A DNA stretch of 60,573 nt, taken from IMG/VR virus record IMGVR_UViG_3300045988_108426, positions 1 through 60,573 of that record, one strand, 5' to 3'. Every line of letters starts with the position of its first letter. Positions within the stretch are counted from its first letter, which is position 1. Origin of the DNA: a virus. The notes beneath the pieces are model-generated. The model was not told the origin of the DNA. It did not search any database and was given only the letters and a program-made list of their open reading frames with translations. Positions 6,626 through 60,549 of the stretch are shown piece by piece. The position numbers and the translations under genes were made by a program.

Positions 6626-7156
6626 TTATATTTTCTTATATTTTACTCCTTTTTTTGACAGTATCTTTTTTCTCAAATCAAAAAACTGTGCTTTTGTTTC
6701 TCTTACCCATTCATTGTGTTTTAAAATTTCGTTTTCTGTATAAAATTCGGATGCTTCGCCCTTGAGATTCCATTCCATAAAACAATCGTTCATATATTCA
6801 TCCTTTTCAAATTCTTTGATTTCTTCAGGAAAATAAGGATAAAATGTATTATTTATACTTTTGATTTCTTCCAAAATAAATTTAGAAAAATCTAAAACAT
6901 TATCATTTCCGTACGCTTTTGCGTAATATATTAAATTGTCTAATTTTTTAAAGCTAAAATTCGGATTAGTGGATAAACCATGGGCTCCAATTTTTAACAA
7001 CGGCTCCGCAATAAAGATTGTGCAGCCATTTACTTTGATATATGGCACATTTTGATTATATTCATATTTTCCAAAATTTACCTCATATCCTTTACTTTCT
7101 GCATATTTAATCATATCCAATTTACTTTTTCTTGCGTTGCTTTTCATAACAGCCAC
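6626..7156 (-). CDS. Hypothetical protein (last gene of the leftward operon)
   Basis: 176-aa ORF with AAAGGTGG SD on the minus strand. No recognisable motif. Confidence 0.6.
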   Translation of the reverse strand: MAVMKSNARKSKLDMIKYAESKGYEVNFGKYEYNQNVPYIKVNGCTIFIAEPLLKIGAHGLSTNPNFSFKKLDNLIYYAKAYGNDNVLDFSKFILEEIKSINNTFYPYFPEEIKEFEKDEYMNDCFMEWNLKGEASEFYTENEILKHNEWVRETKAQFFDLRKKILSKKGVKYKKI

Positions 7157-7432: not shown

Positions 7433-7488
7433 AGCAAGCCGGGGAATCGAACCCCAGAAACGCCGACCTTGCTAATTATTTGCTTGCT
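7433..7488 (-). ncRNA. tRNA-like acceptor/T-arm minihelix lacking D and anticodon arms
   Basis: Minus strand reads AGCAAGC-25 nt-TGGGG-TTCGATT-CCCCG-GCTTGCT: a 7-bp acceptor-like stem flanking a 25-nt spacer plus a canonical 5-bp T stem with a 7-nt T loop. The 5' arm overlaps the last codons of 7476-7808. Confidence 0.55.
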
Positions 7489-10541: not shown

Positions 10542-10874
10542 ATGACTGGCAATGAGTATCAAAAGTTTGCAAACAGAACTTGCAGTATTACAGAAAACAA
10601 AACGGATATGCTGCATCATGCAGTATTCGGTTTAACATCTGAGGCAGGAGAAGTAGCCGGGATGTTACAAAAGGAATATCAGGGGCACGAATTTGATATA
10701 GACCATTTCAAGAAAGAATTAGGAGATTGTACATGGATGATTGCGGAAGCGTGTACTGCGGTCGGAATAACTCTTGACGATGTATTTAACACGAATATCA
10801 AGAAATTAAAGAAACGCTATCCTGATGGTTTTACAACAGAAAATTCACTGCATAGGGCAGAAAATGATATATAA
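10542..10874 (+). CDS. mazG: MazG-like nucleoside triphosphate pyrophosphohydrolase
   Basis: YQKFANRT...GLTSEAGEVAGMLQK...ELGDCTWMIAEACTAVGITLDDV...NIKKLKKRYPDGF is typical of the small all-alpha MazG family. Confidence 0.8.
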   Translation: MTGNEYQKFANRTCSITENKTDMLHHAVFGLTSEAGEVAGMLQKEYQGHEFDIDHFKKELGDCTWMIAEACTAVGITLDDVFNTNIKKLKKRYPDGFTTENSLHRAENDI

Positions 10875-11030
10875 GAGTGAGGTGAAGAGATATGGCAATT
10901 AGAGCACCAACAATTTAAAGTGAAACATTTTTTGAAATTTGTTTAACATTTGTATTTTAATTCATATCTTTAGTACTTCATAAAAATATTACATATCACA
11001 TCCGCAAGGCAATAACAGTCTTGCGGGACA

Positions 11031-11102
11031 ATGGGCATCGCCAAGAGGTTAAGGCATAGCACTTTGACTGCTACATCATGGGTTCAAATCCCATTGCCCC
11101 AG
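11031..11102 (+). tRNA. tRNA-Gln (anticodon UUG) with a defective acceptor stem
   Basis: D arm GCCA/AGGC; anticodon stem TAGCA/TGCTA with loop CTTTGAC; T arm ATGGG-TTCAAAT-CCCAT. The 3' acceptor TGCCCCA requires TGGGGCA, but the 5' strand reads A-TGGGCA (one G short). Confidence 0.6.
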
Positions 11103-11358
11103 TTTGGCAAGATGCCATCTTTGTTTTTCTTCTTGCAAAATCGCGGAGAAAAACTCCTTTCCCACACTAGCGGAATGCTGATTAAAGAGCCATCGCACGG
11201 CTTGGTGTGGTTGTTCGGGAGTCTATCCCACGATGCCCGAACTTACATACTTTTTCCGTACTGGACTAATGTAGTTCCATTACAACTTTCACACCCACCC
11301 ATAACACACAGGTGCTTGCATACCATCTTAAAAGCCTATACAGAGGTGTATGCAATTT

Positions 11359-11430
11359 TGGCATATAGCTCAGTGGTAGAGCGACAGATTGTTAATCTGT
11401 AGGTCGCAGGTTCGATACCTGCTATGCCAG
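11359..11430 (+). tRNA. tRNA-Asn (anticodon GUU)
   Basis: TGGCATA-TA-GCTC-AGTGGTA-GAGC-G-ACAGA-TTGTTAA-TCTGT-AGGTC-GCAGG-TTCGATA-CCTGC-TATGCCA-G; all stems are canonical. Confidence 0.9.
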
Positions 11431-11622
11431 TTGGTGATGTTGTCAGTACACTCCTAGTGCGTTTATTATAGAAATGCAGGTGCTAATCAATATACCGGTT
11501 AAACTTAGCACAGGGAACTGAATTGAGTGGTTGTTATTCAAAAGATAGCGTTAACCGCTGACTAAAAGAACCTTACACTTAGGGCAGTGTGGAGTAAGTA
11601 AAAACGGAAACTGACCAGTTAT

Positions 11623-11705
11623 GCAGATATGGTGTAATGGTATCACAGTAGCTTGCTAAGCTATCCAGCAGAAATGCTGTCAAGGTTCGAATCCTTGTGT
11701 CTGCG
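11623..11705 (+). tRNA. tRNA-Ser (anticodon GCU), class II
   Basis: Acceptor GCAGATA/TGTCTGC; anticodon stem GTAGC/GCTAT with loop TTGCTAA; long variable arm CAGCA-GAAA-TGCTG; T arm CAAGG-TTCGAAT-CCTTG. Confidence 0.85.
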
Positions 11706-11901
11706 TTATGTCAACGCTTGTGCAGAAGCCAATGTCGGCAAAGAAACCTGTATGGGTGTTACCTGTTGCAAAGTGATTGCTATGTGTGGTTCAAATCCAC
11801 ACCACATCAATTCGAGTGGGAACGCATATCAATGTTCGTAGTGGGGATATGCAATGCTGTGAGTTGAGAAACCTGTTTTAGCAGCTAATTAAACTATATA
11901 A

Positions 11902-11981
11902 CGGATAGTAGTTCAGTTGGGAGAAACCCACTGCGGTAATGGTAGCGGAGGGAGTCACAGGTTCGAGCCCTGTCTATCCGA
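11902..11981 (+). tRNA. tRNA-like gene with a non-canonical anticodon arm (isotype undetermined; body resembles tRNA-Pro)
   Basis: Perfect acceptor CGGATAG/CTATCCG, D arm GTTC-AGTTGGGA-GAAA, T arm ACAGG-TTCGAGC-CCTGT. The anticodon arm is 24 nt (CC-A-CTGC-GGTAATGGTA-GCGG-A-GG), i.e. an extended stem with a 10-nt loop. Confidence 0.5.
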
Positions 11982-12720
11982 TGGCAATATGCTGTTGTTT
12001 ACTGACGGCATATTGAATAACCAAATAATATGCCTACGCAAAAATACTAGTTACGACGCGGGTGGTTTACTATATATCTAATCAATATAATTCTCTGACA
12101 GCATAGTGCAATTTAATGGTGCAAGTCCATATGTCAGAATTAAATATGATTAACTCAGTGCAGAGAGGTTTTTCAACCTTGCTGAGGTATGCAAGTAACG
12201 AGATAGGTAAAGTCGAGATATTGATTTTACTGATTTTGATTCTTTCAGTAAAAAGTGATTTTTATTGAGAAGACGAAAATCGTCAACAATGCTTGCATAG
12301 CGTATCATCATAAAGAAGTCAAAAGTAAAAAACTTGTGGCTGACGAATAATAGACGCTTGCAGTGCAAGAATAATCCGGTGATGTGAGTAGTGTGAGAGA
12401 CTACAGACTATATGCGGAAAATCTCATTAAGTCAGTTTGCCTTGAAACTGAGAAATCAGTGTATAACACAAGAAGTTTGTTAAAGTAGCGGTATGGCAAC
12501 TTGGCATTTGAAAACGACATTATTACAAACAAAATGGTGGTTGTTTATATAACAAGATTATTTCTGAAAGAACCGTGAAATTTATGAGTACCAATCTCAT
12601 ATGTGCTTGAAAGCGGCAAGAAGCCTAAGGTCGCTCCTGAAAGCTCAGACTTGCTGTCACATTGACCGAATATGACTGTATCTATGATGGATAAAGGGAA
12701 ACCTTAATCGTATTTATCAA
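11982..12720 (+). ncRNA. Candidate large structured ncRNA (ROOL/GOLLD-like context) between two tRNA genes
   Basis: 739 nt without a credible ORF on either strand, co-oriented with the tRNAs, and dense in short perfect hairpins, some with GAAA loops (details in findings). Confidence 0.4.
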
Positions 12721-12804
12721 GGGAAAGTATGCCTAGTGGCGAGGGCATCTGACTGTAAATCAGACACATTAGAAACAACGGCGGTTCGATTCCGTCCTTT
12801 CCCT
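12721..12804 (+). tRNA. tRNA-Tyr (anticodon GUA), class II
   Basis: Acceptor GGGAAAG/CTTTCCC; anticodon stem TCTGA/TCAGA with loop CTGTAAA; 15-nt variable region; T arm GGCGG-TTCGATT-CCGTC. Confidence 0.85.
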
Positions 12805-12872
12805 TTGCTTTCATATTGAGGACAAATTATAAACGGGTTTAAAATCCCTCCTTGGAAAATATGTCTGATAGA

Positions 12873-12918
12873 AGAGTAGGCGATGTGCTTTTTTTCGGTT
12901 CGATTCCGGACTACTCTT
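12873..12918 (+). ncRNA. Second tRNA-like acceptor/T-arm minihelix
   Basis: AGAGTAG-14 nt-TTCGG-TTCGATT-CCGGA-CTACTCT-T: a 7-bp acceptor-like stem plus a canonical T arm, with no D or anticodon arms. Lies 28 nt upstream of the DUF1599 gene. Confidence 0.55.
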
Positions 12919-12945
12919 TAATAATTTATGTGAGAGGTAAGAAAG

Positions 12946-13464
12946 ATGGATAATTTGGAACAACACAAAATACTTTTACAACAGATACATGATACATATG
13001 TCAAGAAAAATCATGATTATGGCGATAGCTTTAGTCGTTCATTTAAGAAATATGGATTAGTAGCGGCTATGGTTCGCATGGAAGATAAATGGAACAGACT
13101 TGATAATATGGCAACAGGAGCAGAACGGAAAGTTGCTGACGAAACTATAAGAGATACGCTGCTAGACCTTGCTGGATATTGCGTTATGACAACGATGGAA
13201 CTGGACAGAGAGAAAGACAACGCAAATCAAAAAGCATTTGAAGAACAGGTTCGGGATGAATATACCGAAGTTTTTGGAGAAGATAACGAGAACGAAAATG
13301 AAGAAACAGATACTTCTAATAAAACATCAGCGGAAAAGAGTTCTATTGATGTAGGCAAGGTAATGGCTTTACACAATGCCAAATGGTCGCAAGCAAAGAT
13401 TGCTGATGAAATGGGGTGTTCACAAAGTATGGTTTGTAAGATTATCAAAAAATATAAACAGTGA
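12946..13464 (+). CDS. DUF1599 (nucleotide-modification-associated domain 1-like) protein with C-terminal HTH
   Basis: KKNHDYGDSF...RMEDKWNRLDN...ADETIRDTLLDLAGYCVM fits the DUF1599 signature. The C-terminal KIADEMGCSQSMVCKIIKKY is HTH-like. Confidence 0.6.
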   Translation: MDNLEQHKILLQQIHDTYVKKNHDYGDSFSRSFKKYGLVAAMVRMEDKWNRLDNMATGAERKVADETIRDTLLDLAGYCVMTTMELDREKDNANQKAFEEQVRDEYTEVFGEDNENENEETDTSNKTSAEKSSIDVGKVMALHNAKWSQAKIADEMGCSQSMVCKIIKKYKQ

Positions 13465-16728: not shown

Positions 16729-16779
16729 GGCAGAGGTCTATAAGCACCTCTGCTAAAGAAAGCGAGGTGCTTCTTTTTT
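16729..16779 (+). promoter_or_regulatory. Two mutually exclusive hairpins upstream of terL; the downstream one is terminator-like and sequesters the terL SD
   Basis: Hairpin A: GGCAGAGGT (16729-16737) with ACCTCTGCT (16746-16754). Hairpin B: AAGCACCTC (16742-16750) with GAGGTGCTT (16764-16772), followed by CTTTTTT. The two share 16746-16750. Confidence 0.5.
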
Positions 16780-18523
16780 GGCATCTAAATATCTTAAAGA
16801 AACAGTTCAAAGTTATGAAAATTACATAGAGAAAAATGGAATAGATGAAAGTGTTATAAATGCTTATGTTGAAGCTGTAGAAGTTGCTTTGCTGACGGAA
16901 AAAGACAAAGAATACGGCTTGAAATTGTCTGCAAAGGCAAAAGAGTTAATTTTTGAATACATAAGTATAGTTACAAATGGTGCGGATTTTAAATGGCTTG
17001 AAGAACAATCACAAACAAACAAGCAAACATATGAAATTATAGAAAAATATTACAAGGTTTTACTTTATGAAGCACCAATGCTACTTGATAGCTATATTTT
17101 ATACATTGAAAAAAACAGACCCCGAAAAGAAAGGTTCTATGAGCCTAGAAGAAAAACACTCAAACAAGTTGTAGATAAAATTCAAGAATTAGAAGATGGA
17201 AAACTTGACGAGTTGTTTATACATATGCCACCAAGAATAGGTAAATCCCAAATTATAACACTAGCTATGTCGTGGCATTGTGCAAAAGATACGGAAAAAA
17301 GCAATTTATATATAACATATAAAGAGGGATTGGGCGGAGCTTTTCTTACTGGTGTGATGGAAATATGGACTGACCCTACATATTGTTTTGCTGATTTATT
17401 TCCGGACATTAAAGTTGCGTGTACTGATGCTAAAAACAACAAAGTAGATTTAAAACGAAAGAAAAAATACAAAACATTGTCAGGAAAAGGGCTGGAAAGT
17501 GGTCTTAATGGTGAGTATGACGCATACGGCTGGATGGTACTTGATGATATTTTAGAGGGTATTCAAGATGTACTTAATCCTGAGACACTTAAACGAAAAC
17601 AGATAATATTTGACAACAATGTAATGTCACGAAAAAAAGAACAATGCAAACTCATACATAACGGTACAATTTGGAGTTTACATGACCTTTATAGTGACAG
17701 ATTAGATTTCTTACAAAATAATCCTGAAGCAAAAGATATTAGATATGAAATTTTAAAAATCCCGGCACTTGATGAAAATGACGAAAGTAACTTTGATTAT
17801 GATTACGGAGTTGGATATACAACGCAGTATTATCGAACATTAAGAGCAAAATTTGAAGAAAATGATGATATGGCTTCTTGGTATGCTCAGTATCAGCAAG
17901 AGCCTATTGAAAGAGATGGAGCAGTATTCAATCCTGAGCATATGAAATTTTACAATGGCGTACTTCCGAAAGAAGAACCATACAGAATATGTGCGGCTTG
18001 CGATGTTGCTTTAGGCGGAGAAGATTTCCTTGCATTTGCGGTAGCTTATATGTATGAGGATAACTCAATATATATAGATGATGTTGTTTTCGATAACAAC
18101 GAAAAGAAATTTACAAAGCCAAAAGTTGTAAATATGATTATAGACCATGATGTCGGGTCAGCATATTTTGAAGCAAATCAAGGCGGCGAGGGTTACAAAG
18201 ATGAAGTTGATGTAATGTTGCAAGCAAAAGGGAAAAAAATCAATTTGAGGTCGGAATACGCACCAACGAATAAAAGAAAAACTCAAAGGATATGGGACAA
18301 AGCAGGAAGCATAAGAGAATTTTATTTTCGTGATGTTGGATGCAGAAGTCAAGAATACAGGAAATTTATGACAAACTTATACAGTTTTACAATAACAGGA
18401 AAAAACAAACATGAAGATGCGGCTGACTGCCTTGCGTCATTAGCATATTTCATTGAGGGTAATTGGAGTGCCGCAAAAGTTGAAGCGGCTGTAAATCCTT
18501 TTAGTAGCGGTAGGAGGTATTGA
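16778..18523 (+). CDS. terL: Terminase large subunit (TTG start)
   Basis: Walker A PPRIGKSQ, Walker B WMVLDD, and a C-terminal RNaseH-like nuclease region (CDVALGGEDF, EANQGGEG, HEDAADCL). 581 aa. Confidence 0.9.
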   Translation: MASKYLKETVQSYENYIEKNGIDESVINAYVEAVEVALLTEKDKEYGLKLSAKAKELIFEYISIVTNGADFKWLEEQSQTNKQTYEIIEKYYKVLLYEAPMLLDSYILYIEKNRPRKERFYEPRRKTLKQVVDKIQELEDGKLDELFIHMPPRIGKSQIITLAMSWHCAKDTEKSNLYITYKEGLGGAFLTGVMEIWTDPTYCFADLFPDIKVACTDAKNNKVDLKRKKKYKTLSGKGLESGLNGEYDAYGWMVLDDILEGIQDVLNPETLKRKQIIFDNNVMSRKKEQCKLIHNGTIWSLHDLYSDRLDFLQNNPEAKDIRYEILKIPALDENDESNFDYDYGVGYTTQYYRTLRAKFEENDDMASWYAQYQQEPIERDGAVFNPEHMKFYNGVLPKEEPYRICAACDVALGGEDFLAFAVAYMYEDNSIYIDDVVFDNNEKKFTKPKVVNMIIDHDVGSAYFEANQGGEGYKDEVDVMLQAKGKKINLRSEYAPTNKRKTQRIWDKAGSIREFYFRDVGCRSQEYRKFMTNLYSFTITGKNKHEDAADCLASLAYFIEGNWSAAKVEAAVNPFSSGRRY

Positions 18524-19982: not shown

Positions 19983-21446
19983 ATGCGAAATACAAGACCT
20001 CTGAGAGATATTATAAAAGGAAATTATGGCAGAAAAGTATTATATACTACTGCGGAGACAATAACACAGGACAACATATTAAAGGTTGTCGGTGATGTTA
20101 TCGGAAATTTCTATTATAACAAAACTATAACAGATTATTTGTGGCGATATTACAAAGGCGACCAACCGGTACTATACAGAACAAAAGTTGCAAATGATGA
20201 TATTATAAACAAAATTGTAGAAAATCATGCATATGAGATAGTGCAATTCAAAGTCGGACAAACCTATGGGGAGCCGGTACAATTTGTGAGTAGAAAAGAT
20301 GACGATGCCGTAAATAATGCCGTTGATGAACTTAACGACTATATGTCAGATGCAAATAAACAAGAAAAAGACATTAAGTCGGGTGAATGGCAGTCGGCAA
20401 CAGGAACATCATTTAAAGCATTACAGTTTTCTGATGGTGACATACCATTCAGAATTGTGTGTCCTACACCCATGAATACTTTTGTTATTTACAATTTAAG
20501 TACAGAAGAACCTATGCTTGCGGTACAAGAATTAAAGGACTTTGAGGGCAACTATTACAAGTTGTGCTACACAAATACAAACTCATGTATTATTAGAGAC
20601 GGCGTTGTTTCTGAATGGAAACTACATGGTTTTGGCAGTATTCCTATCGTTGAGTTTCCAAACAATCACGAAAGATTGTCTGATATTGAAATTGTTATAG
20701 ATATGTTAGATGCTATTAACAATATGCAGTCTAACAGAATGGATGGAGTTGAACAGTTTGTTCAGTATTGGGTCAAGTTTATAAATTGTGAGATTGATGA
20801 AGAAACATTTGCAAAAATGAAAGAAAGCCATGCACTTGCGGTCAAGTCGGTCAATAAAGACAATAAATCAGATGTTGACATTATGACGCAAGAACTTAAT
20901 CAGACACAATGTCAAGTTGCAAAAGATGATTTGTGGGAAAACGCACAAGGTGTTCTTGCTATGCCAACAAGGGAAAATCAAAATTCCGGGGGCGACACGC
21001 AGGGGGCCGTATCTCTTCGAGCAGGATGGGACTTTTCTAAAACTAGAGCAAAGTTAAAAGACCCGATTGTTAAGTCGTCAGAAAAACGGCTTGCTAAAGT
21101 AGCTTTAAATATTATTCGTATTAAAGACCATGATTTAGGTATAACATTAAGAGATTTTGATGTACAGATAAATCATAGCCCACAAGATAATATGTACACT
21201 AAGGCTCAGACATTGTTACAGCTTTTACAGTGCGGCATACATCCGCTTATAGCAATAAAAACAGTAGGATTGTGGGGAGATGCAGAAAAGACATTCTTGC
21301 TATCACAGCCGTACATAGATAACCTTTGGAAGACTATTGATGATGTAGAAGAACAAGAAGCAAGAGCAAAAAAGATAGTACAGCAAATGAATAACGGCAA
21401 TCAGTTGAATGATAATAAAAGTGAAACAGCTATCGGGCAAAACTAG
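19983..21446 (+). CDS. Portal protein (SPP1 gp6-like)
   Basis: 487 aa at the canonical position; YYKGDQPVLYRTK and the overall pattern fit SPP1-type portals. Confidence 0.85.
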   Translation: MRNTRPLRDIIKGNYGRKVLYTTAETITQDNILKVVGDVIGNFYYNKTITDYLWRYYKGDQPVLYRTKVANDDIINKIVENHAYEIVQFKVGQTYGEPVQFVSRKDDDAVNNAVDELNDYMSDANKQEKDIKSGEWQSATGTSFKALQFSDGDIPFRIVCPTPMNTFVIYNLSTEEPMLAVQELKDFEGNYYKLCYTNTNSCIIRDGVVSEWKLHGFGSIPIVEFPNNHERLSDIEIVIDMLDAINNMQSNRMDGVEQFVQYWVKFINCEIDEETFAKMKESHALAVKSVNKDNKSDVDIMTQELNQTQCQVAKDDLWENAQGVLAMPTRENQNSGGDTQGAVSLRAGWDFSKTRAKLKDPIVKSSEKRLAKVALNIIRIKDHDLGITLRDFDVQINHSPQDNMYTKAQTLLQLLQCGIHPLIAIKTVGLWGDAEKTFLLSQPYIDNLWKTIDDVEEQEARAKKIVQQMNNGNQLNDNKSETAIGQN

Positions 21447-23155: not shown

Positions 23156-24250
23156 ATGGCAGCATTACCATTAGCAGAAGCATTTACAGCGAGAAGTCTT
23201 GGTGTAATGTGGAATAACTACGAAAAAACATTAGGTTCTGCCCCTTATCTTGGCAGACAGAAGTTTGGAACAAGAAAACAGGATTCACTTGACCTTAGAT
23301 TTATTAAGGGTAAAAGTGGACTTCCAGTATCGTTAAAGGCATCTAACTTTGACGCACAGGCAGAGTTAAGAGATGTAGGTGGTTTCTCTGATATTCAGAA
23401 CGAAATGCCGTTTTATCGTGAATCGTACATGGTTACAGAAAAAGAAGAACAGGAGTACGCAAACTATCAAAGTGCTGAAAACTCTAGCCTTGCAAATCAG
23501 GTACTTAGAGAAATTAGCAAGAAGCCTATGAACCTCATTGAGGGAGCGTTAGTAGTCCCTGAGCGTCAGATTTGGAACTTGTTAGCACCAGCAGATGGAG
23601 TTCCAAAAATTCCGGTTACGATTGGTGGAAAGAACTACAATGTTGAATATACATTAGACAGTGGAGGGGAACATAAGAAAGACCATTTTATCGAAATTCA
23701 GACGCCAGCTGATAAGTGGGATGCGCCGACCACGGCAACACCACTCGACGACCTTATACAGGCAAGAAGAACATTTGCAAAGAAAACAGGTTATTCACTG
23801 ACAAGATTTACTATGAATACAGAAACTTTTGAGAAACTTCTTGAAGCTGAGGACACAAAGAAGCAGGTACTTGGAATTGCGGCATATCAAGGTGGTATTA
23901 GAGTACAGCAGGGGCAGGTTGTTGACTATCTTAAAGGATATGGGATTGAGATTGAAGTTTACGACAAACTTTATATTGACCCAACAGACGGTCAGACAAA
24001 ATACTTTGTACCGACAGGTGTTATCAGTGCACAATCAGGTGGAGTTTTCTTAGGTGATTATGTATTCGGCAGAACACCGGAAGAAAGAAGCGGAAGCCTT
24101 ACAGATGGAAACTTATCTATCGTTGAAACTGGTATTTCTGTTTACACATATGCTACTAACCACCCTATCAATACTCATTGCGTTGTATCTATGATAGGAC
24201 TTCCGACATTTGAGGGAATGGATAGCGTTGTAGTTATGAAAGTAATGTAG
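23156..24250 (+). CDS. Major capsid protein (lambda gpE-like family)
   Basis: 364 aa; the N-terminal LAEAFTARSLGVMWNNYEKTLGSAPYLGRQKFGTRKQDSLDLRF pattern and the position fit. Confidence 0.85.
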   Translation: MAALPLAEAFTARSLGVMWNNYEKTLGSAPYLGRQKFGTRKQDSLDLRFIKGKSGLPVSLKASNFDAQAELRDVGGFSDIQNEMPFYRESYMVTEKEEQEYANYQSAENSSLANQVLREISKKPMNLIEGALVVPERQIWNLLAPADGVPKIPVTIGGKNYNVEYTLDSGGEHKKDHFIEIQTPADKWDAPTTATPLDDLIQARRTFAKKTGYSLTRFTMNTETFEKLLEAEDTKKQVLGIAAYQGGIRVQQGQVVDYLKGYGIEIEVYDKLYIDPTDGQTKYFVPTGVISAQSGGVFLGDYVFGRTPEERSGSLTDGNLSIVETGISVYTYATNHPINTHCVVSMIGLPTFEGMDSVVVMKVM

Positions 24251-36809: not shown

Positions 36810-39620
36810 ATGCTTAATTTGACAGATAGTCAAAAAGAGAGTTTTTATAAAATTGGTGCGTATTTTAATGACTATGAATTTTATTTTCACGACTTAGATT
36901 ATACAATCACAAACGAAACGCTGCATCAAGAAAGCGTGACAATTAAAGAAAGCATATGTGATAGTGAGGATTTACAACTTGGCGGCTGTATTGCATCATC
37001 GTGTGAGTTTGAAGTATCAGAACTTGCAGGAAAAGAACTTGCAGGACTGGAATTTACGGCAAGATTATTAGTAAATGATGGAAAAGATGCAGTTGTACAA
37101 ATGGGAAAATATCGTGTAGACAGTGCGAAGCGTGTAGATGAAAAAGATTATCGAAAGATAACTGCTTATGATGCTTTATATGATGCTCAAATTGATGTTT
37201 CTGAGTGGTATAATAAAGTCTTTTATGTTGTATCACAATATGAGGAATTAGTGGCAGTTGGCGATATTGACGATTTGTGGGAACATGGTGAATATACAAT
37301 AGACAATTCGGGAAGTAAGCCCCCCGAAGTAGCTTTTTTCTTAAATGGTGCAGTACCTGAAGAAGCATATGACACAACATATCTTGATACATCAACAGGT
37401 AAATTGTATGAAGCACAAGATATTAACAAAGATGATGATAGTAAGGACGAATTGTATCGTTGGATTGAGGTGTACCAATGCAAGAGAAAGACACAAACAA
37501 AGTATATTTACGCAACGACAACACTCAAGAAACTGCGTGAAAGTTTGCTAAACTATTTGAATATTCCTTTTGTTGAGCAAAATCTGATAAACGATGAGAT
37601 TACAATTTCAAGAACTATCGACACAAACGAAAACGGAGAACTGCTCGGAACGGATATGCTGAGATATATATGCGAGGTTAATGCCGGTTTTGGTAAAATG
37701 AACAGAGAGGGAAAGTTTGAGGTCATTTCATTGCTAAGCCCGGGACTATACCCGGAAGAAACATTATACCCGTCAGAAGAATTATATCCGGAGGACCATT
37801 ACGAAGTCATTGCGAGTGATGAAAATTCAGCAAGCTACATATCAACAAGCTATGAAGAATATGAGGTAGAGGGTATCACGGGGGTTATCATTAAAGGCGA
37901 TAGTGACAATGTCGGGGAGCTTGCAGGCGCAAAAGATAATCCTTATGTAATCAGCGGCAATCCTCTTTTGTATGGCAGTATAGCCGAAAAGTTAAAAGGG
38001 ATAGGACAAAAGATTTATGAGCAAATAAAAGGATATATATATCGTCCCAATACAACAGCACTTGATGGACTTCCGTACTTGGAAACAGGCGATTATTTTG
38101 TATTGATAAAAGAAAACAGTGATGATATAGGCTCATTTATTTTTTCTAGGACATTAAGTGGAGTACAGGCGTTAAAAGATACTTATGAGAGCAAAGGAAA
38201 CAAACTAAGAGTAAATGAAGATGTTCAAACATCAGAGTTAATGTATTTACAATCAAGAACGGCTAAAATTCAAAAGAGCGTTGACGGTGTGTCGATTGAG
38301 TTGACAAACTTAGAGGAAAATACAAGTTCAAGATTTGAACAAACAGCAAATAAGATTGAAGCTGAGGTTATAAGAGCAAGCAATGCCGAAGGAGAACTTT
38401 CGGGCAGACTGACAATTACGGCAGATGCAATTACACAGGAAGTCACCAGGGCGAAAGCCGAAGAAGCAACATTGAGCGGTAGAATAAATGTCACAGCGGA
38501 ACAAATTACAGCCGAAGTAAAAAGAGCCGAGAACGAAGAAAATAGCATAAGAACAGCACTTACATTAAAGGCTGACAGTGCAGAACTGGGATATTACCAG
38601 ACAAAAGCTGATATGACAAATTATGCTACGACTACTTGGGCTGAGAATCAGATAAGTAGCAAAGTGTCGAAAGGGGATGTATGCAGCGAGATAAATCAAT
38701 CATCAGAGCAGATTGTTTTGAAGTCAAACAGGCTTGTTATCGACAGTACAAATTTTAAATTAGATGCAAACGGTAACGCAGATTACAGAGGAAACATATC
38801 TGCCAGTGATGCTAAATTTTATAACATAACAGGCTTTGGAGGGATGATAAGCATTGTCTCTGGAAGCAGTTTTTCAGCGGGAACAGGCGGCTACCAAAGA
38901 GATACTTATGGATATATCAAGGTACATAGTGATGATGGTACAGCAAACTGTTATGTTCAAAGTGATAAACTTATAGGAGACACAATAGAAGCCGGAAGAA
39001 TCAACGGTTCAACTGGATACTTAGAATTGCACGGTTACACAAAAGCAAAAATGTTTGTATTTAACGATGAAGCATACGGCATTGTTCTCGATATGAATAG
39101 TAATCGTGATTTGCATTTAAGACCAGCATCTAACGAAGATACAGACTGCGGTTCAGCATCTTATAAATGGCGAAATTTGTATTGTAAAAATGGCACTATA
39201 CAAACATCTGACAGAAACGAAAAAATGAACATATCGGATATGTCAGAACAATATGCAAATGCAATTATTGATGATGCTTCACCAAAAACATATATGATGC
39301 TTAACAATGAAAGCGGAAGAACTCATGCAGGAATGATAGCACAGGATTTAGAAGAACAGTTATCAAAAAACGGTATGAGTTCAAAAGATTTTGCAGGGTT
39401 CATAAAATATGAAAAAGAAGATACTAACGGAGTTCCAACAAGTGAATACGGCTATGGAATACGCTACGAGGAATATATAGCACCGCTTATTAAGTATTCT
39501 CAGTGTTTAAAAAGAGATTTGAAGCAGGAAATAGAAAGAAATCAGCAGTTACAATTTCAACTTTTAAATTTACAAGGTGAATTTATGATATTAAAACAAC
39601 AGATTTTAGGAGGAAAATAA
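36810..39620 (+). CDS. Tail tip/fibre protein with C-terminal intramolecular chaperone (Peptidase_S74) domain
   Basis: 936 aa; coiled repeats (AEGELSGRLTITADAITQEV / EEATLSGRINVTAEQITAEV). The C-terminal TSDRNEKMNISD...HAGMIAQDLEE...YGIRYEEYIAPLI is typical of the S74 autoproteolytic chaperone. Confidence 0.7.
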   Translation: MLNLTDSQKESFYKIGAYFNDYEFYFHDLDYTITNETLHQESVTIKESICDSEDLQLGGCIASSCEFEVSELAGKELAGLEFTARLLVNDGKDAVVQMGKYRVDSAKRVDEKDYRKITAYDALYDAQIDVSEWYNKVFYVVSQYEELVAVGDIDDLWEHGEYTIDNSGSKPPEVAFFLNGAVPEEAYDTTYLDTSTGKLYEAQDINKDDDSKDELYRWIEVYQCKRKTQTKYIYATTTLKKLRESLLNYLNIPFVEQNLINDEITISRTIDTNENGELLGTDMLRYICEVNAGFGKMNREGKFEVISLLSPGLYPEETLYPSEELYPEDHYEVIASDENSASYISTSYEEYEVEGITGVIIKGDSDNVGELAGAKDNPYVISGNPLLYGSIAEKLKGIGQKIYEQIKGYIYRPNTTALDGLPYLETGDYFVLIKENSDDIGSFIFSRTLSGVQALKDTYESKGNKLRVNEDVQTSELMYLQSRTAKIQKSVDGVSIELTNLEENTSSRFEQTANKIEAEVIRASNAEGELSGRLTITADAITQEVTRAKAEEATLSGRINVTAEQITAEVKRAENEENSIRTALTLKADSAELGYYQTKADMTNYATTTWAENQISSKVSKGDVCSEINQSSEQIVLKSNRLVIDSTNFKLDANGNADYRGNISASDAKFYNITGFGGMISIVSGSSFSAGTGGYQRDTYGYIKVHSDDGTANCYVQSDKLIGDTIEAGRINGSTGYLELHGYTKAKMFVFNDEAYGIVLDMNSNRDLHLRPASNEDTDCGSASYKWRNLYCKNGTIQTSDRNEKMNISDMSEQYANAIIDDASPKTYMMLNNESGRTHAGMIAQDLEEQLSKNGMSSKDFAGFIKYEKEDTNGVPTSEYGYGIRYEEYIAPLIKYSQCLKRDLKQEIERNQQLQFQLLNLQGEFMILKQQILGGK

Positions 39621-59142: not shown

Positions 59143-59175
59143 CACATTCTTTTTATATAAAAGGAGGATTTGAAG

Positions 59176-60549
59176 ATGGAATGTGTTGCGTACATGAGAG
59201 TATCAACAGAAAAACAAGCAGAAGATGGAAACGGGCTGGAAAGCCAAAAAAGAGATATTGATAATTACTGCAATAAGAACGGTTATATAATCAGTGATTA
59301 CTATATTGACGATGGTTATACTGGTGCAAACATGGACAGACCACAGCTGCAACGACTTATCAGCGATTGTGTATCGAAAAGAGTGAAGTGTGTTGTTGCT
59401 TTTAAATTAGACAGGTTGTCACGAAGCATGGTTGATGGAATATATATCATCGAACGAGTGTTTCAAGCAAATAACATCTTGTTTAAATGTGTGCATGACA
59501 GTATAAGCTACGACAGTCCGATGGAGCAAGCATATACTCAGATGATGGCAGTTTTTGCACAGCTTGATAAAAACACAATGATGTTGCGTATGCGTGGCGG
59601 TATGTTGGAAAGAGTAAAGCAAGGCTACTGGATGGGTGGCGGTAATACTCCTTATTGCTATAAGTATGATAAGGAAAAAGGAATTTTAGTACCTATACCC
59701 GAACGGAAAGAGCAGGCAAATCAAGCATTAGATTTGTTTATTGACGGCTATTCGGATGTTGCAATTAAAAAAATGCTTAATTTTACGCATGAGCATACTG
59801 TTAAAATGGTTTTAACAAGTCCAGTAAACATCGGCATGATACCATATAAGGGCAATTTATATAAAGGTTTGCATGAGCCTATTTTTGATAAAGATAGATT
59901 TCAGCTTGCACAGGAAGCGAGGAAAAACAGAAGAAAAAAGAAAACAGTTAGCCTTAACAAAGAACCAAATTTATTGACAGGTTTATGTTATTGCGGTGTG
60001 TGTGGATGTAAAATGCGTTATCAAAAATGGGGAAGTGAATCTGATGCACCTAAAAAAATTTACTGTTGCTCACGAAACAAAGATTTATTTTATTTGCCGA
60101 ATTACAATAGAGACTGCGATAATTCAATAGAATGGGCTACCGACATTGAAAAGCAAGTCGAAGCTGAGATAATAAAAATATCTTTAAATTTGTCATCGCA
60201 AAAACCAATCGCAAAGCAGAGTAAAATTGATATAATACAGTCGCAAATCAAAAAGGAAAAATATCGCCGCAAAAGGCTTTTTAATCTTTACGCAGATGGA
60301 AATGACGATGTTTTGAATATAATAAAACAGTCAGACGATACTATCAGTAGTTTAAAAGAACAACTTGAAATTGAATTATTAAGCAAAGAAGTAAATAAAA
60401 AGAAAAGTATTGCCTATAAGAATATCAAAAAAATTGCCGATGTTTGGGACAGCATCGACAAAAGAAATAAAAATATGATACTTAAAACTATAATTGACAA
60501 GATAATAATTGTCAATGGAGATATTGAGATACAATTAAAGAATTTTTAG
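59176..60549 (+). CDS. int: Large serine recombinase (integrase)
   Basis: N-terminal resolvase domain AYMRVSTEKQ...DDGYTGANMDRPQLQRL...VVAFKLDRLSRS, a recombinase domain, zinc ribbon CYCGVCGCKM...YCCS, and a coiled-coil tail. AAGGAGG lies 8 nt before the ATG at 59176. Confidence 0.9.
   Translation: MECVAYMRVSTEKQAEDGNGLESQKRDIDNYCNKNGYIISDYYIDDGYTGANMDRPQLQRLISDCVSKRVKCVVAFKLDRLSRSMVDGIYIIERVFQANNILFKCVHDSISYDSPMEQAYTQMMAVFAQLDKNTMMLRMRGGMLERVKQGYWMGGGNTPYCYKYDKEKGILVPIPERKEQANQALDLFIDGYSDVAIKKMLNFTHEHTVKMVLTSPVNIGMIPYKGNLYKGLHEPIFDKDRFQLAQEARKNRRKKKTVSLNKEPNLLTGLCYCGVCGCKMRYQKWGSESDAPKKIYCCSRNKDLFYLPNYNRDCDNSIEWATDIEKQVEAEIIKISLNLSSQKPIAKQSKIDIIQSQIKKEKYRRKRLFNLYADGNDDVLNIIKQSDDTISSLKEQLEIELLSKEVNKKKSIAYKNIKKIADVWDSIDKRNKNMILKTIIDKIIIVNGDIEIQLKNF

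Follow-up and report, generated by a model that had tools for sequence, protein, structure and literature searches.

A phage tRNA array and the ROOL RNA gene within it

We analyzed a 60,573-nucleotide (nt) stretch of viral DNA (IMG/VR record IMGVR_UViG_3300045988_108426, positions 1 to 60,573), referred to here as the window, with a focus on the 739-nt interval at positions 11982 to 12720 and the ROOL RNA gene that it contains. The interval lies between two tRNA genes on the plus strand, that for tRNA-Leu (UAA) (11902-11981), which is the closest tRNA gene on the 5′ side of ROOL, and that for tRNA-Tyr (GUA) (12720-12805). Both were called by ARAGORN and matched by the Rfam tRNA model (35.6 bits for tRNA-Leu; 12721-12804, 55.3 bits, for tRNA-Tyr). 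With tRNA-Gln (11031-11102), tRNA-Asn (11358-11431) and tRNA-Ser (11622-11706), likewise ARAGORN calls, they form a five-tRNA array that is entirely on the plus strand. An original prediction, made from the sequence alone, had described the interval as the largest noncoding block of the genome, placed between tRNA genes and on their strand; indeed, it falls inside the window's largest stretch without open reading frames (ORFs) of at least 80 amino acids (aa), 11403-12945.

The same prediction had proposed a giant noncoding RNA of the ROOL/GOLLD kind or else an undescribed class, and had suggested covariance-model searches as a check. Scanning the whole window with Rfam 15 at curated thresholds returned the tRNAs and one further match, ROOL (RF03087), at 12130-12725 on the plus strand, which scored 334.7 bits (gathering threshold 99.1; E = 2e-76). 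The alignment covers model positions 1 to 574 of 574 and is not truncated. A permissive Rfam scan (E ≤ 1, positions 10850 to 13000) added only a weak tRNA-Leu match and chance-level matches, ROOL being the sole large-RNA match. GOLLD was matched neither at its gathering threshold in the whole window nor at E ≤ 1 within 10850-13000. The proposal thus held for ROOL specifically, and GOLLD and an undescribed class fell away.

A blastn search (distant mode) with 11982-12720 gave no match in the INPHARED phage set. Homologues were gathered from IMG/VR with a pattern of nearly invariant ROOL positions, TTTGCCTTGAANNNNNGAAANNNNNGTATAA, which matched at least 119 contigs; the resulting loci (L001 to L119, 1.13 Mb) underlie the counts of IMG/VR relatives given here. 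When positions 10881 to 12960 of the window were compared with these 119 loci by BLAST, one of them (L071) was near-identical, with 99% identity over all 2083 nt, and the remaining loci among the matches listed aligned at ∼12140-12716 only, with 72 to 76% identity. Since relatives other than L071 align there only, the conserved unit reaches from ∼12140 to 12716/12720 and comprises ∼581 nt rather than 739 nt. We place the ROOL RNA gene at 12140-12720 (+), its probable mature extent, with the exact ends deduced from the flanking tRNA-like elements described below. This length, 581 nt, is the same as the mean length of the ROOL family (PMC5737381).

The interval contains antisense ORFs of 72 and 43 aa and sense ORFs of 54, 50, 34 and 31 aa, and the 72-aa antisense frame was therefore not the only one, as had been stated. 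The presence of ORFs of 31 to 72 aa on both strands would be compatible with a small protein, encoded for example by the 72-aa antisense or the 50-aa sense frame, to which the RNA structure would be incidental. However, none of the five frames tested was conserved over 101 homologues (L074 excluded), and a conserved ORF, which the original prediction had named as evidence against it, thus did not appear. Only 6 homologues have an intact 72-aa antisense frame and 35 an intact 50-aa sense frame; for the other tested frames the number is 17 to 24. Moreover, homologue indels are mostly not multiples of three, and substitutions in the helices are compensatory. These comparisons show the ROOL region to be noncoding and leave only a negligible probability for a small protein.

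Covarying secondary structure and putative assembly contacts

The window ROOL and 101 distinct IMG/VR sequences were aligned with MAFFT (alignment A1; 102 rows, 664 columns, 73% mean column identity), and the Rfam ROOL consensus structure was projected onto A1 through the window row. In the direct cmscan projection five helices were one nucleotide out of register, and P1, the closing helix, had only 3 of 16 standard pairs. A register scan of each helix (shifts of −2 to +2) found the five misregistered helices to be 85 to 100% paired at shift −1, with many pair types; the others were best at shift 0, except for one that was poorly resolved. The refined nested structure comprises 148 pairs in 27 helices (as grouped by the counting tool), with 92.7% of cells paired and with double-sided changes in 91 of the pairs, covering 1423 cells. 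None of 500 shuffles reached the observed pairing or double-sided values. When the 3′ partners were slid by 1 to 3 columns, only 34 to 43% of cells were paired and 26 to 34 pairs had double-sided changes. RNAalifold, run independently, had 122 of 153 pairs in common with the refined structure. The test for covariation among homologues that had been proposed for this region was thus strongly positive, and the alignment shows a multi-helix ROOL fold maintained by compensatory substitutions across more than 100 relatives.

P1 is formed by TAAATATGATT (12141-12151) and AATCGTATTTA (12706-12716), a pairing that emerged from the register scan and the pair counts, with CG/UA/AU exchanges, and that is also present in the minimum free energy (MFE) structure. 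The single-sequence fold of the 580-nt core, closed by P1, reaches −153.3 kcal/mol and lies below all 100 shuffles (z = −4.75). The description of all 739 nt as highly structured therefore stands for this core and for the unit 12140-12720, but not for the leader at 11982-12093 (z = −1.4).

Six of the short helices listed in the original prediction proved to be real ROOL helices: CTCAG/CTGAG, AGGTT/AACCT, GACGA/TCGTC, CTTG/CAAG at 12357, GTAGT/ACTAC and ATGAG/CTCAT are paired in 93 to 100% of the sequences and show double-sided changes. Others were not retained. TCAGTTT/AAACTGA is paired in 61%, with double-sided changes in 1 of 7 pairs, and its strands belong to the helices 12339-44/12431-36 and 12447-51/12456-60. 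In the cluster at 12606-12648, CTGA/TCAG (71%), CTTG/CAAG at 12606 (89%) and AGCG/CGCT (84%) have 0 to 1 double-sided changes and their strands pair elsewhere; the conserved helix in this area is formed by GCGGCAAG (12613-20) with CTTGCTGT (12650-57). Two further helices lie outside ROOL: CAATATGC/GCATATTG belongs to the leader, and TCTGACA/TGTCAGA forms the acceptor-like stem of a tRNA-like minihelix. The original observation was thus confirmed only in part, its extent and some of its helices having had to be corrected.

The segment 12494-12570 (+) is a variable linker that could not be aligned among the 102 sequences (A1 columns ∼397-490, without consensus) and at which the Rfam alignment places a 22-nt insertion. 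It corresponds to the disordered linker of env-120 ROOL (nt 414-464), which faces the interior of the cage formed by that RNA (Kretsch et al. 2025, PMC12286853).

Of the 148 consensus pairs, 136 are standard in the window itself. The 12 that are not, five of them in the outer, poorly conserved P1 extension and seven internal, could point to a decaying ROOL remnant or pseudogene in the tRNA island, still recognizable but no longer folding or assembling. One hairpin of the Rfam model is also deleted (an 11-column gap in the cmscan alignment), and decay does occur, as one relative (L074) has a replaced 3′ part. However, the deleted hairpin is missing from the consensus of the whole clade and is thus not a private lesion, and the match spans the full model with a score far beyond the threshold. 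The kissing-loop complementarities and nearly invariant motifs are all retained, and an independent contig (L071) carries a copy that is 99% identical. We therefore consider a remnant very unlikely, and the locus is better read as an intact ROOL RNA.

Two of the collected loci have an unusual organization. The ROOL copy at L074 4099-4685 follows the family to approximately alignment column 494 and then turns into unrelated sequence, which makes it a truncated or recombined ROOL. In L128 (uncultured Clostridiales RUG328, ONID01000165.1; 1928-2549), two ROOL motif matches lie on the same strand, 591 nt apart, which implies tandem ROOL genes.

ROOL RNAs form RNA-only octamers or hexamers (PMC12286853, PMC12990946). 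By cryo-electron microscopy, env-120 ROOL is a D4 homo-octameric cage of ∼280 Å across, with bridges B1 to B6 and the disordered linker within (PMC12286853). Known contacts were taken from the env-120 residue tables and sequence (supplement of PMC12286853; B6 residues from Supplementary Table 2). The sequence used covers 650 of 659 nt, and residue numbers were adjusted locally (by 3 at B4).

In the intersubunit kissing contact B4 of env-120, an apical-loop GGUA pairs with UACC in the following junction (PMC12286853), and a ROOL pseudoknot had been predicted earlier by Weinberg et al. (PMC5737381). The counterpart in the window is the apical loop UGAGA (12394-12398, +), which is complementary to the junction segment UCUCA (12422-12426, +). 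Of 101 homologues, 100 can form at least four Watson-Crick pairs between these positions; with a shuffled partner, the proportion drops to 12.8%. In two of the loci (L066 and L096) the contact is exchanged for CGUG:CACG. A de novo pseudoknot scan over all column pairs yielded unusable noise, with dozens of spurious stacks, because of G-U tolerance and low diversity.

Bridge B6, which joins the half-shells of env-120, is made by loop L18 (U564 G565 C566; PMC12286853). The hairpin loop UCGCU at 12631-12635 (+), with the self-complementary G12633-C12634, is its putative counterpart, as suggested by the local similarity of GAGUUGCUAACC to AGGUCGCUCCU. The GGTCGCTCC loop at this position is nearly invariant in A1; since the GC never varies, there is no covariation to test. 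Bridge B1 of env-120 joins A38-C41 to G465-U468 (PMC12286853), and a candidate counterpart is the pairing of the hairpin loop UUUUCA (12170-12175, +) with the conserved UGAAAG just 3′ of the linker (12565-12570, +); all but one of the 101 homologues have this complementarity, yet it also arises in 36% of cases in the shuffled control. The complementarity of GUGA (12255-58) to UCGC (12631-34) is conserved in 100%. We do not claim it as a contact, as GUGA is a GNRA tetraloop, which more probably docks on a receptor.

The covariance-model score, the covarying structure, the length and linker, the B4 complementarity and the phage/tRNA setting all agree with membership in the ROOL family. These data show 12140-12720 (+) to be a full-length ROOL RNA, one that is ordinary for this known family and located in the usual kind of setting.

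tRNA-like structures at the ROOL ends

The first ∼158 nt of the interval (11982-12139) are, as judged by alignment, outside the ROOL family. They begin with a nonconserved leader or spacer of 112 nt (11982-12093, +), which has no Rfam match, is common to L071 (from the same phage) only, and contains a hairpin, GGCAAUAUGCUGUUG...CGGCAUAUUG, at 11983-12015. The leader is followed by a 45-nt element found with a scanner for tRNA-like minihelices (12094-12138, +) and by a discriminator-like A12139. The acceptor-like stem of this element, TCTGACA/TGTCAGA, has 7 of 7 Watson-Crick pairs and is kept in the MFE fold; its T-arm-like hairpin, AATGG-TGCAAGT-CCATA, has an arm with 4 of 5 bp, and D and anticodon arms are missing. 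A full tRNA at 12094-12139 was neither called by ARAGORN nor matched by Rfam at E ≤ 1, and the element can be called tRNA-like, not a tRNA. It ends 2 nt 5′ of P1, which starts at 12141. At the other end, the 3′ strand of P1 ends at 12716, and tRNA-Tyr begins 4 to 5 nt further on, at 12720/12721. The nearest ROOL relatives among the matches listed carry a complete tRNA-Asn at the position of the minihelix, and L048 has another minihelix there.

We then considered all collected loci, oriented on ROOL and annotated with ARAGORN. Ninety-nine loci have 300 nt or more of sequence on each side of ROOL. Of these, 97 carry an upstream tRNA on the same strand within 300 nt, which in 68 of them ends within 4 nt of the P1 core, and 93 carry a downstream tRNA within 300 nt, which in 42 of them lies within 20 nt. 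The setting of the interval in a phage and beside tRNA genes, considered typical of ROOL in the original prediction, is thus borne out by the five-tRNA array and by its relatives. Many seeming tRNA gaps contain tRNA-like sequences that were missed by ARAGORN. A T-arm with an xTC loop, combined with an acceptor stem of 7 bp whose end lies no more than 8 nt from P1, was found in 91 of the 107 loci with more than 300 nt upstream (∼85%), compared with 68 of 3000 random positions. In contrast, the generic scanner without a T-loop requirement matches 41% of random positions and 224 sites in the window (both strands), and such a match is no evidence by itself.

These counts also bear on the possibility that a single, longer RNA spans all 739 nt and belongs to another or an undescribed class, either GOLLD-like or a 5′-extended ROOL, in which 11982-12139 would be a functional domain. 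The leader does have a stable 15-bp hairpin, next to the minihelix, and GOLLD RNAs have a variable 5′ domain, sometimes with embedded tRNAs (PMC12286853). Nevertheless, 68 of 99 loci have no space for a 5′ domain, as their upstream tRNA ends no more than 4 nt from P1, and the leader is absent from the other ROOL loci collected (118 in IMG/VR and 14 in bacterial genomes). It also folds no better than its shuffles, and neither GOLLD nor any other Rfam family was matched. A longer RNA is therefore extremely unlikely, and we retain a ROOL unit that starts at ∼12140.

Further tRNA-like elements occur in the array and in its relatives. A second 45-nt minihelix lies 3′ of tRNA-Tyr, just before the ORF at 12946 (12873-12917, +). 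It has the acceptor stem AGAGTAG/CTACTCT and the T-arm TTCGG-TTCGATT-CCGGA with a canonical T-loop, its MFE structure forms both stems (z = −2.05), and it shares with 12094-12138 the same 7+14+17+7 layout. At 11162-11210 (+) we observed an element of ∼50 nt with an acceptor stem, a D-like hairpin, GATTAAAG and a T-like arm, without an anticodon arm; a permissive Rfam scan (E ≤ 1) gave no match to it. Elements of this type, with the consensus ...TAGC.GGA.GCTGATTAAAG-GGAC-TTCAAAT-GTCC-CGG..., recur in L040, L024, L037/L115, L081/L119 and L053/L023, and in L040 the element directly adjoins the 5′ end of ROOL. In the spacer between tRNA-Ser and tRNA-Leu, a hairpin with a canonical T-loop sequence (GTGTGG-TTCAAAT-CCACAC, 11771-11800, +) is probably a tRNA remnant, since it has no convincing acceptor stem.

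The 119 loci also contain short tRNA-like elements (38 to 62 nt) that ARAGORN did not call and in which a perfect acceptor stem is combined with a T-stem of 5 bp and a canonical T-loop. We counted 27 of them on the strand of ROOL, a single one on the other strand and none in shuffled loci; they represent 14 distinct sequences and several families. In six loci (L042, L026, L117, L112, L067 and L092), a tRNA-like gene adjoins ROOL upstream. Its 5′ part (GCTATCATAGCTCAATTGGTAGAGCAG) looks normal and its T-arm/acceptor 3′ end is normal, with ∼80 nt inserted, and it may be an intron-containing or otherwise interrupted tRNA missed by ARAGORN.

RNase P and RNase Z are known to accept, as minimal substrates, minihelices that consist of an acceptor stem and a T-arm. 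One possible reading, which we put forward only tentatively, is that phage tRNA/ROOL arrays carry recurrent, strand-specific tRNA-like elements of 45 to 62 nt as RNase P/RNase Z punctuation or as decoys for host factors. Such elements would lack an anticodon arm and would combine an acceptor stem of 7 bp with a T-arm and, in some cases, a D-like hairpin. Their role would not be decoding but the release of ROOL and neighboring RNAs with exact ends, and the minihelix at 12094-12138 would set the 5′ end of ROOL.

Source phage, proposed maturation and related systems

Nearly every long ORF of the window is on the plus strand. A PHROG search identified a MazG-like pyrophosphatase immediately 5′ of the tRNA array (10542-10874) and, farther along, the large terminase (16778-18523), portal (19983-21446), major head protein (23156-24250), a tail fiber or spike protein (36810-39620) and a serine integrase (59170-60549). 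The tRNA/ROOL island thus has nucleotide-metabolism genes on one side and packaging genes on the other. The top relative of the terminase among GenBank phages is that of Clostridium phage Maintenon, with the host [Clostridium] innocuum, at 38.7% identity. Based on these gene identities and the terminase relative, the window is assigned to a temperate, siphovirus-like tailed phage or prophage of a gut Firmicute. The ROOL-clade motif pattern also matches 14 bacterial genome records, from Lachnospiraceae, Clostridium spp., Dorea, Roseburia, Bariatricus, Mogibacterium, Solobacterium and Absicoccus; when the window was compared by BLAST with these 14 loci, which carry the same ROOL clade, no close match emerged that would indicate the host of the phage.

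Two observations concern the phage more generally. The tRNA-Gln at 11031-11102 has the anticodon TTG in the window and CTG in L071 (2463-2534; ARAGORN), in contigs that are 99% identical, and this is a polymorphism at the anticodon wobble position between near-identical phages. On the minus strand, an ORF-poor stretch adjoining the only sizeable minus-strand ORF (6626-7156) contains a 56-nt minihelix (7433-7488; AGCAAGC ... TGGGG-TTCGATT-CCCCG-GCTTGCT). Its folding is unexceptional (z = −0.57), and it may derive from the 3′ part of a tRNA or be what remains of an attachment site.

Taken together, we are highly confident that the locus is best explained by a ROOL RNA, which would be cotranscribed with the tRNA array, released by tRNA-processing enzymes and assembled into a protein-free cage. 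The maturation part of this model is suggested by the adjacency of tRNA or tRNA-like structures to both ROOL ends, and processing in the window is deduced from adjacency statistics. The RNA would be transcribed from the plus strand jointly with the phage tRNA array. RNase P cleavage at the 5′ end of tRNA-Tyr would generate the 3′ end of ROOL at ∼12720, and RNase Z or another tRNA 3′-end nuclease, cutting after the minihelix at 12094-12139, would generate its 5′ end at ∼12140. The freed RNA of ∼581 nt could then close on P1 and, by analogy to the solved ROOL RNAs, self-assemble into a symmetric hexameric or octameric cage through the loop-junction kissing contact (GAGA:UCUC) and the self-complementary GC loop. 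More speculatively, and with low confidence, the cage might act during phage growth on tRNA or the translation machinery, sequestering or sheltering a macromolecule. The authors of the env-120 structure speculated that ROOL encapsulates tRNAs, ribosomal subunits or other cargo (PMC12286853), and the ROOL of L. salivarius equals 16S rRNA in abundance and yet is dispensable (PMC12286853, PMC5643018).

Several points weigh against this explanation. The T-loop of the upstream minihelix, TGCAAGT, is noncanonical, and neither its folding energy (z = −1.5) nor the frequency of the motif by itself makes the element significant; with the generic minihelix criterion, the background of ∼1 match per 450 nt per strand corresponds to a chance placement at this spot of ∼0.02. 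For these reasons, 5′ processing is the weakest link of the model. A promoter scan found 11 promoter-like matches, with 8.9 expected (12002-12029 scores 9/12), and a terminator scan found none above chance. The stem equivalent to P7 (12357-12369) has just 4 bp; because the length of the P7 stem tracks stoichiometry in the solved ROOLs, the choice between hexamer and octamer is not predictable here. The registers of five helices were picked on the same alignment on which pairs were counted, and the pair counts of these five are therefore somewhat inflated; the helices that needed no shift support the covariation result independently of this choice.

Few natural RNAs are known to form, as ROOL does, a closed protein-free cage that is larger than the ribosome. 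Being a typical member in a typical setting, the present locus adds little on its own. Its quantitative by-product is that, at more than 100 gut-phage loci, ROOL almost always lies directly against tRNAs or tRNA-like structures on the same strand. This adjacency makes release by host tRNA-processing enzymes a concrete and testable hypothesis, and it suggests a way of defining native ROOL ends for structural and genetic work. Such tRNA-like punctuation around ROOL is the sole lead that goes past the known features of the family.

The arrangement resembles tRNA-punctuated processing in mitochondrial polycistronic transcripts and the tRNA-like 3′-end signal of MALAT1/mascRNA in that a non-tRNA RNA is flanked by tRNA or tRNA-like structures. 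It differs from these systems in its bacterial phage context, in that processing is deduced from adjacency and in the noncanonical T-loop of the upstream minihelix. GOLLD is likewise a large ornate phage or prophage RNA in tRNA arrays that builds RNA-only cages, and its biological role may be related to that of ROOL, but it has a different fold, is usually longer than 800 nt and has separate 5′ and 3′ domains, sometimes with embedded tRNAs. Within the ROOL family (RF03087; Weinberg et al. 2017, PMC5737381), the structures of reference are the octamer of env-120 (PDB 9MDS), the 580-nt RNA of Enterococcus faecalis, an octamer or tetramer, and the hexamer of Ligilactobacillus salivarius. Compared to other ROOLs, the RNA described here has only ∼72 to 76% identity to its nearest relatives found, apart from the single 99% copy in IMG/VR. 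Compared to the Rfam consensus, it lacks one peripheral hairpin, as does its whole clade. Its P7-equivalent stem is short (4 bp), and its 5′ neighbor is a 45-nt tRNA-like minihelix rather than a full tRNA. With these family members it nevertheless shares a multijunction fold that P1 closes, the position of the variable linker, the B4-like kissing complementarity and the setting in a phage or prophage next to tRNA genes.

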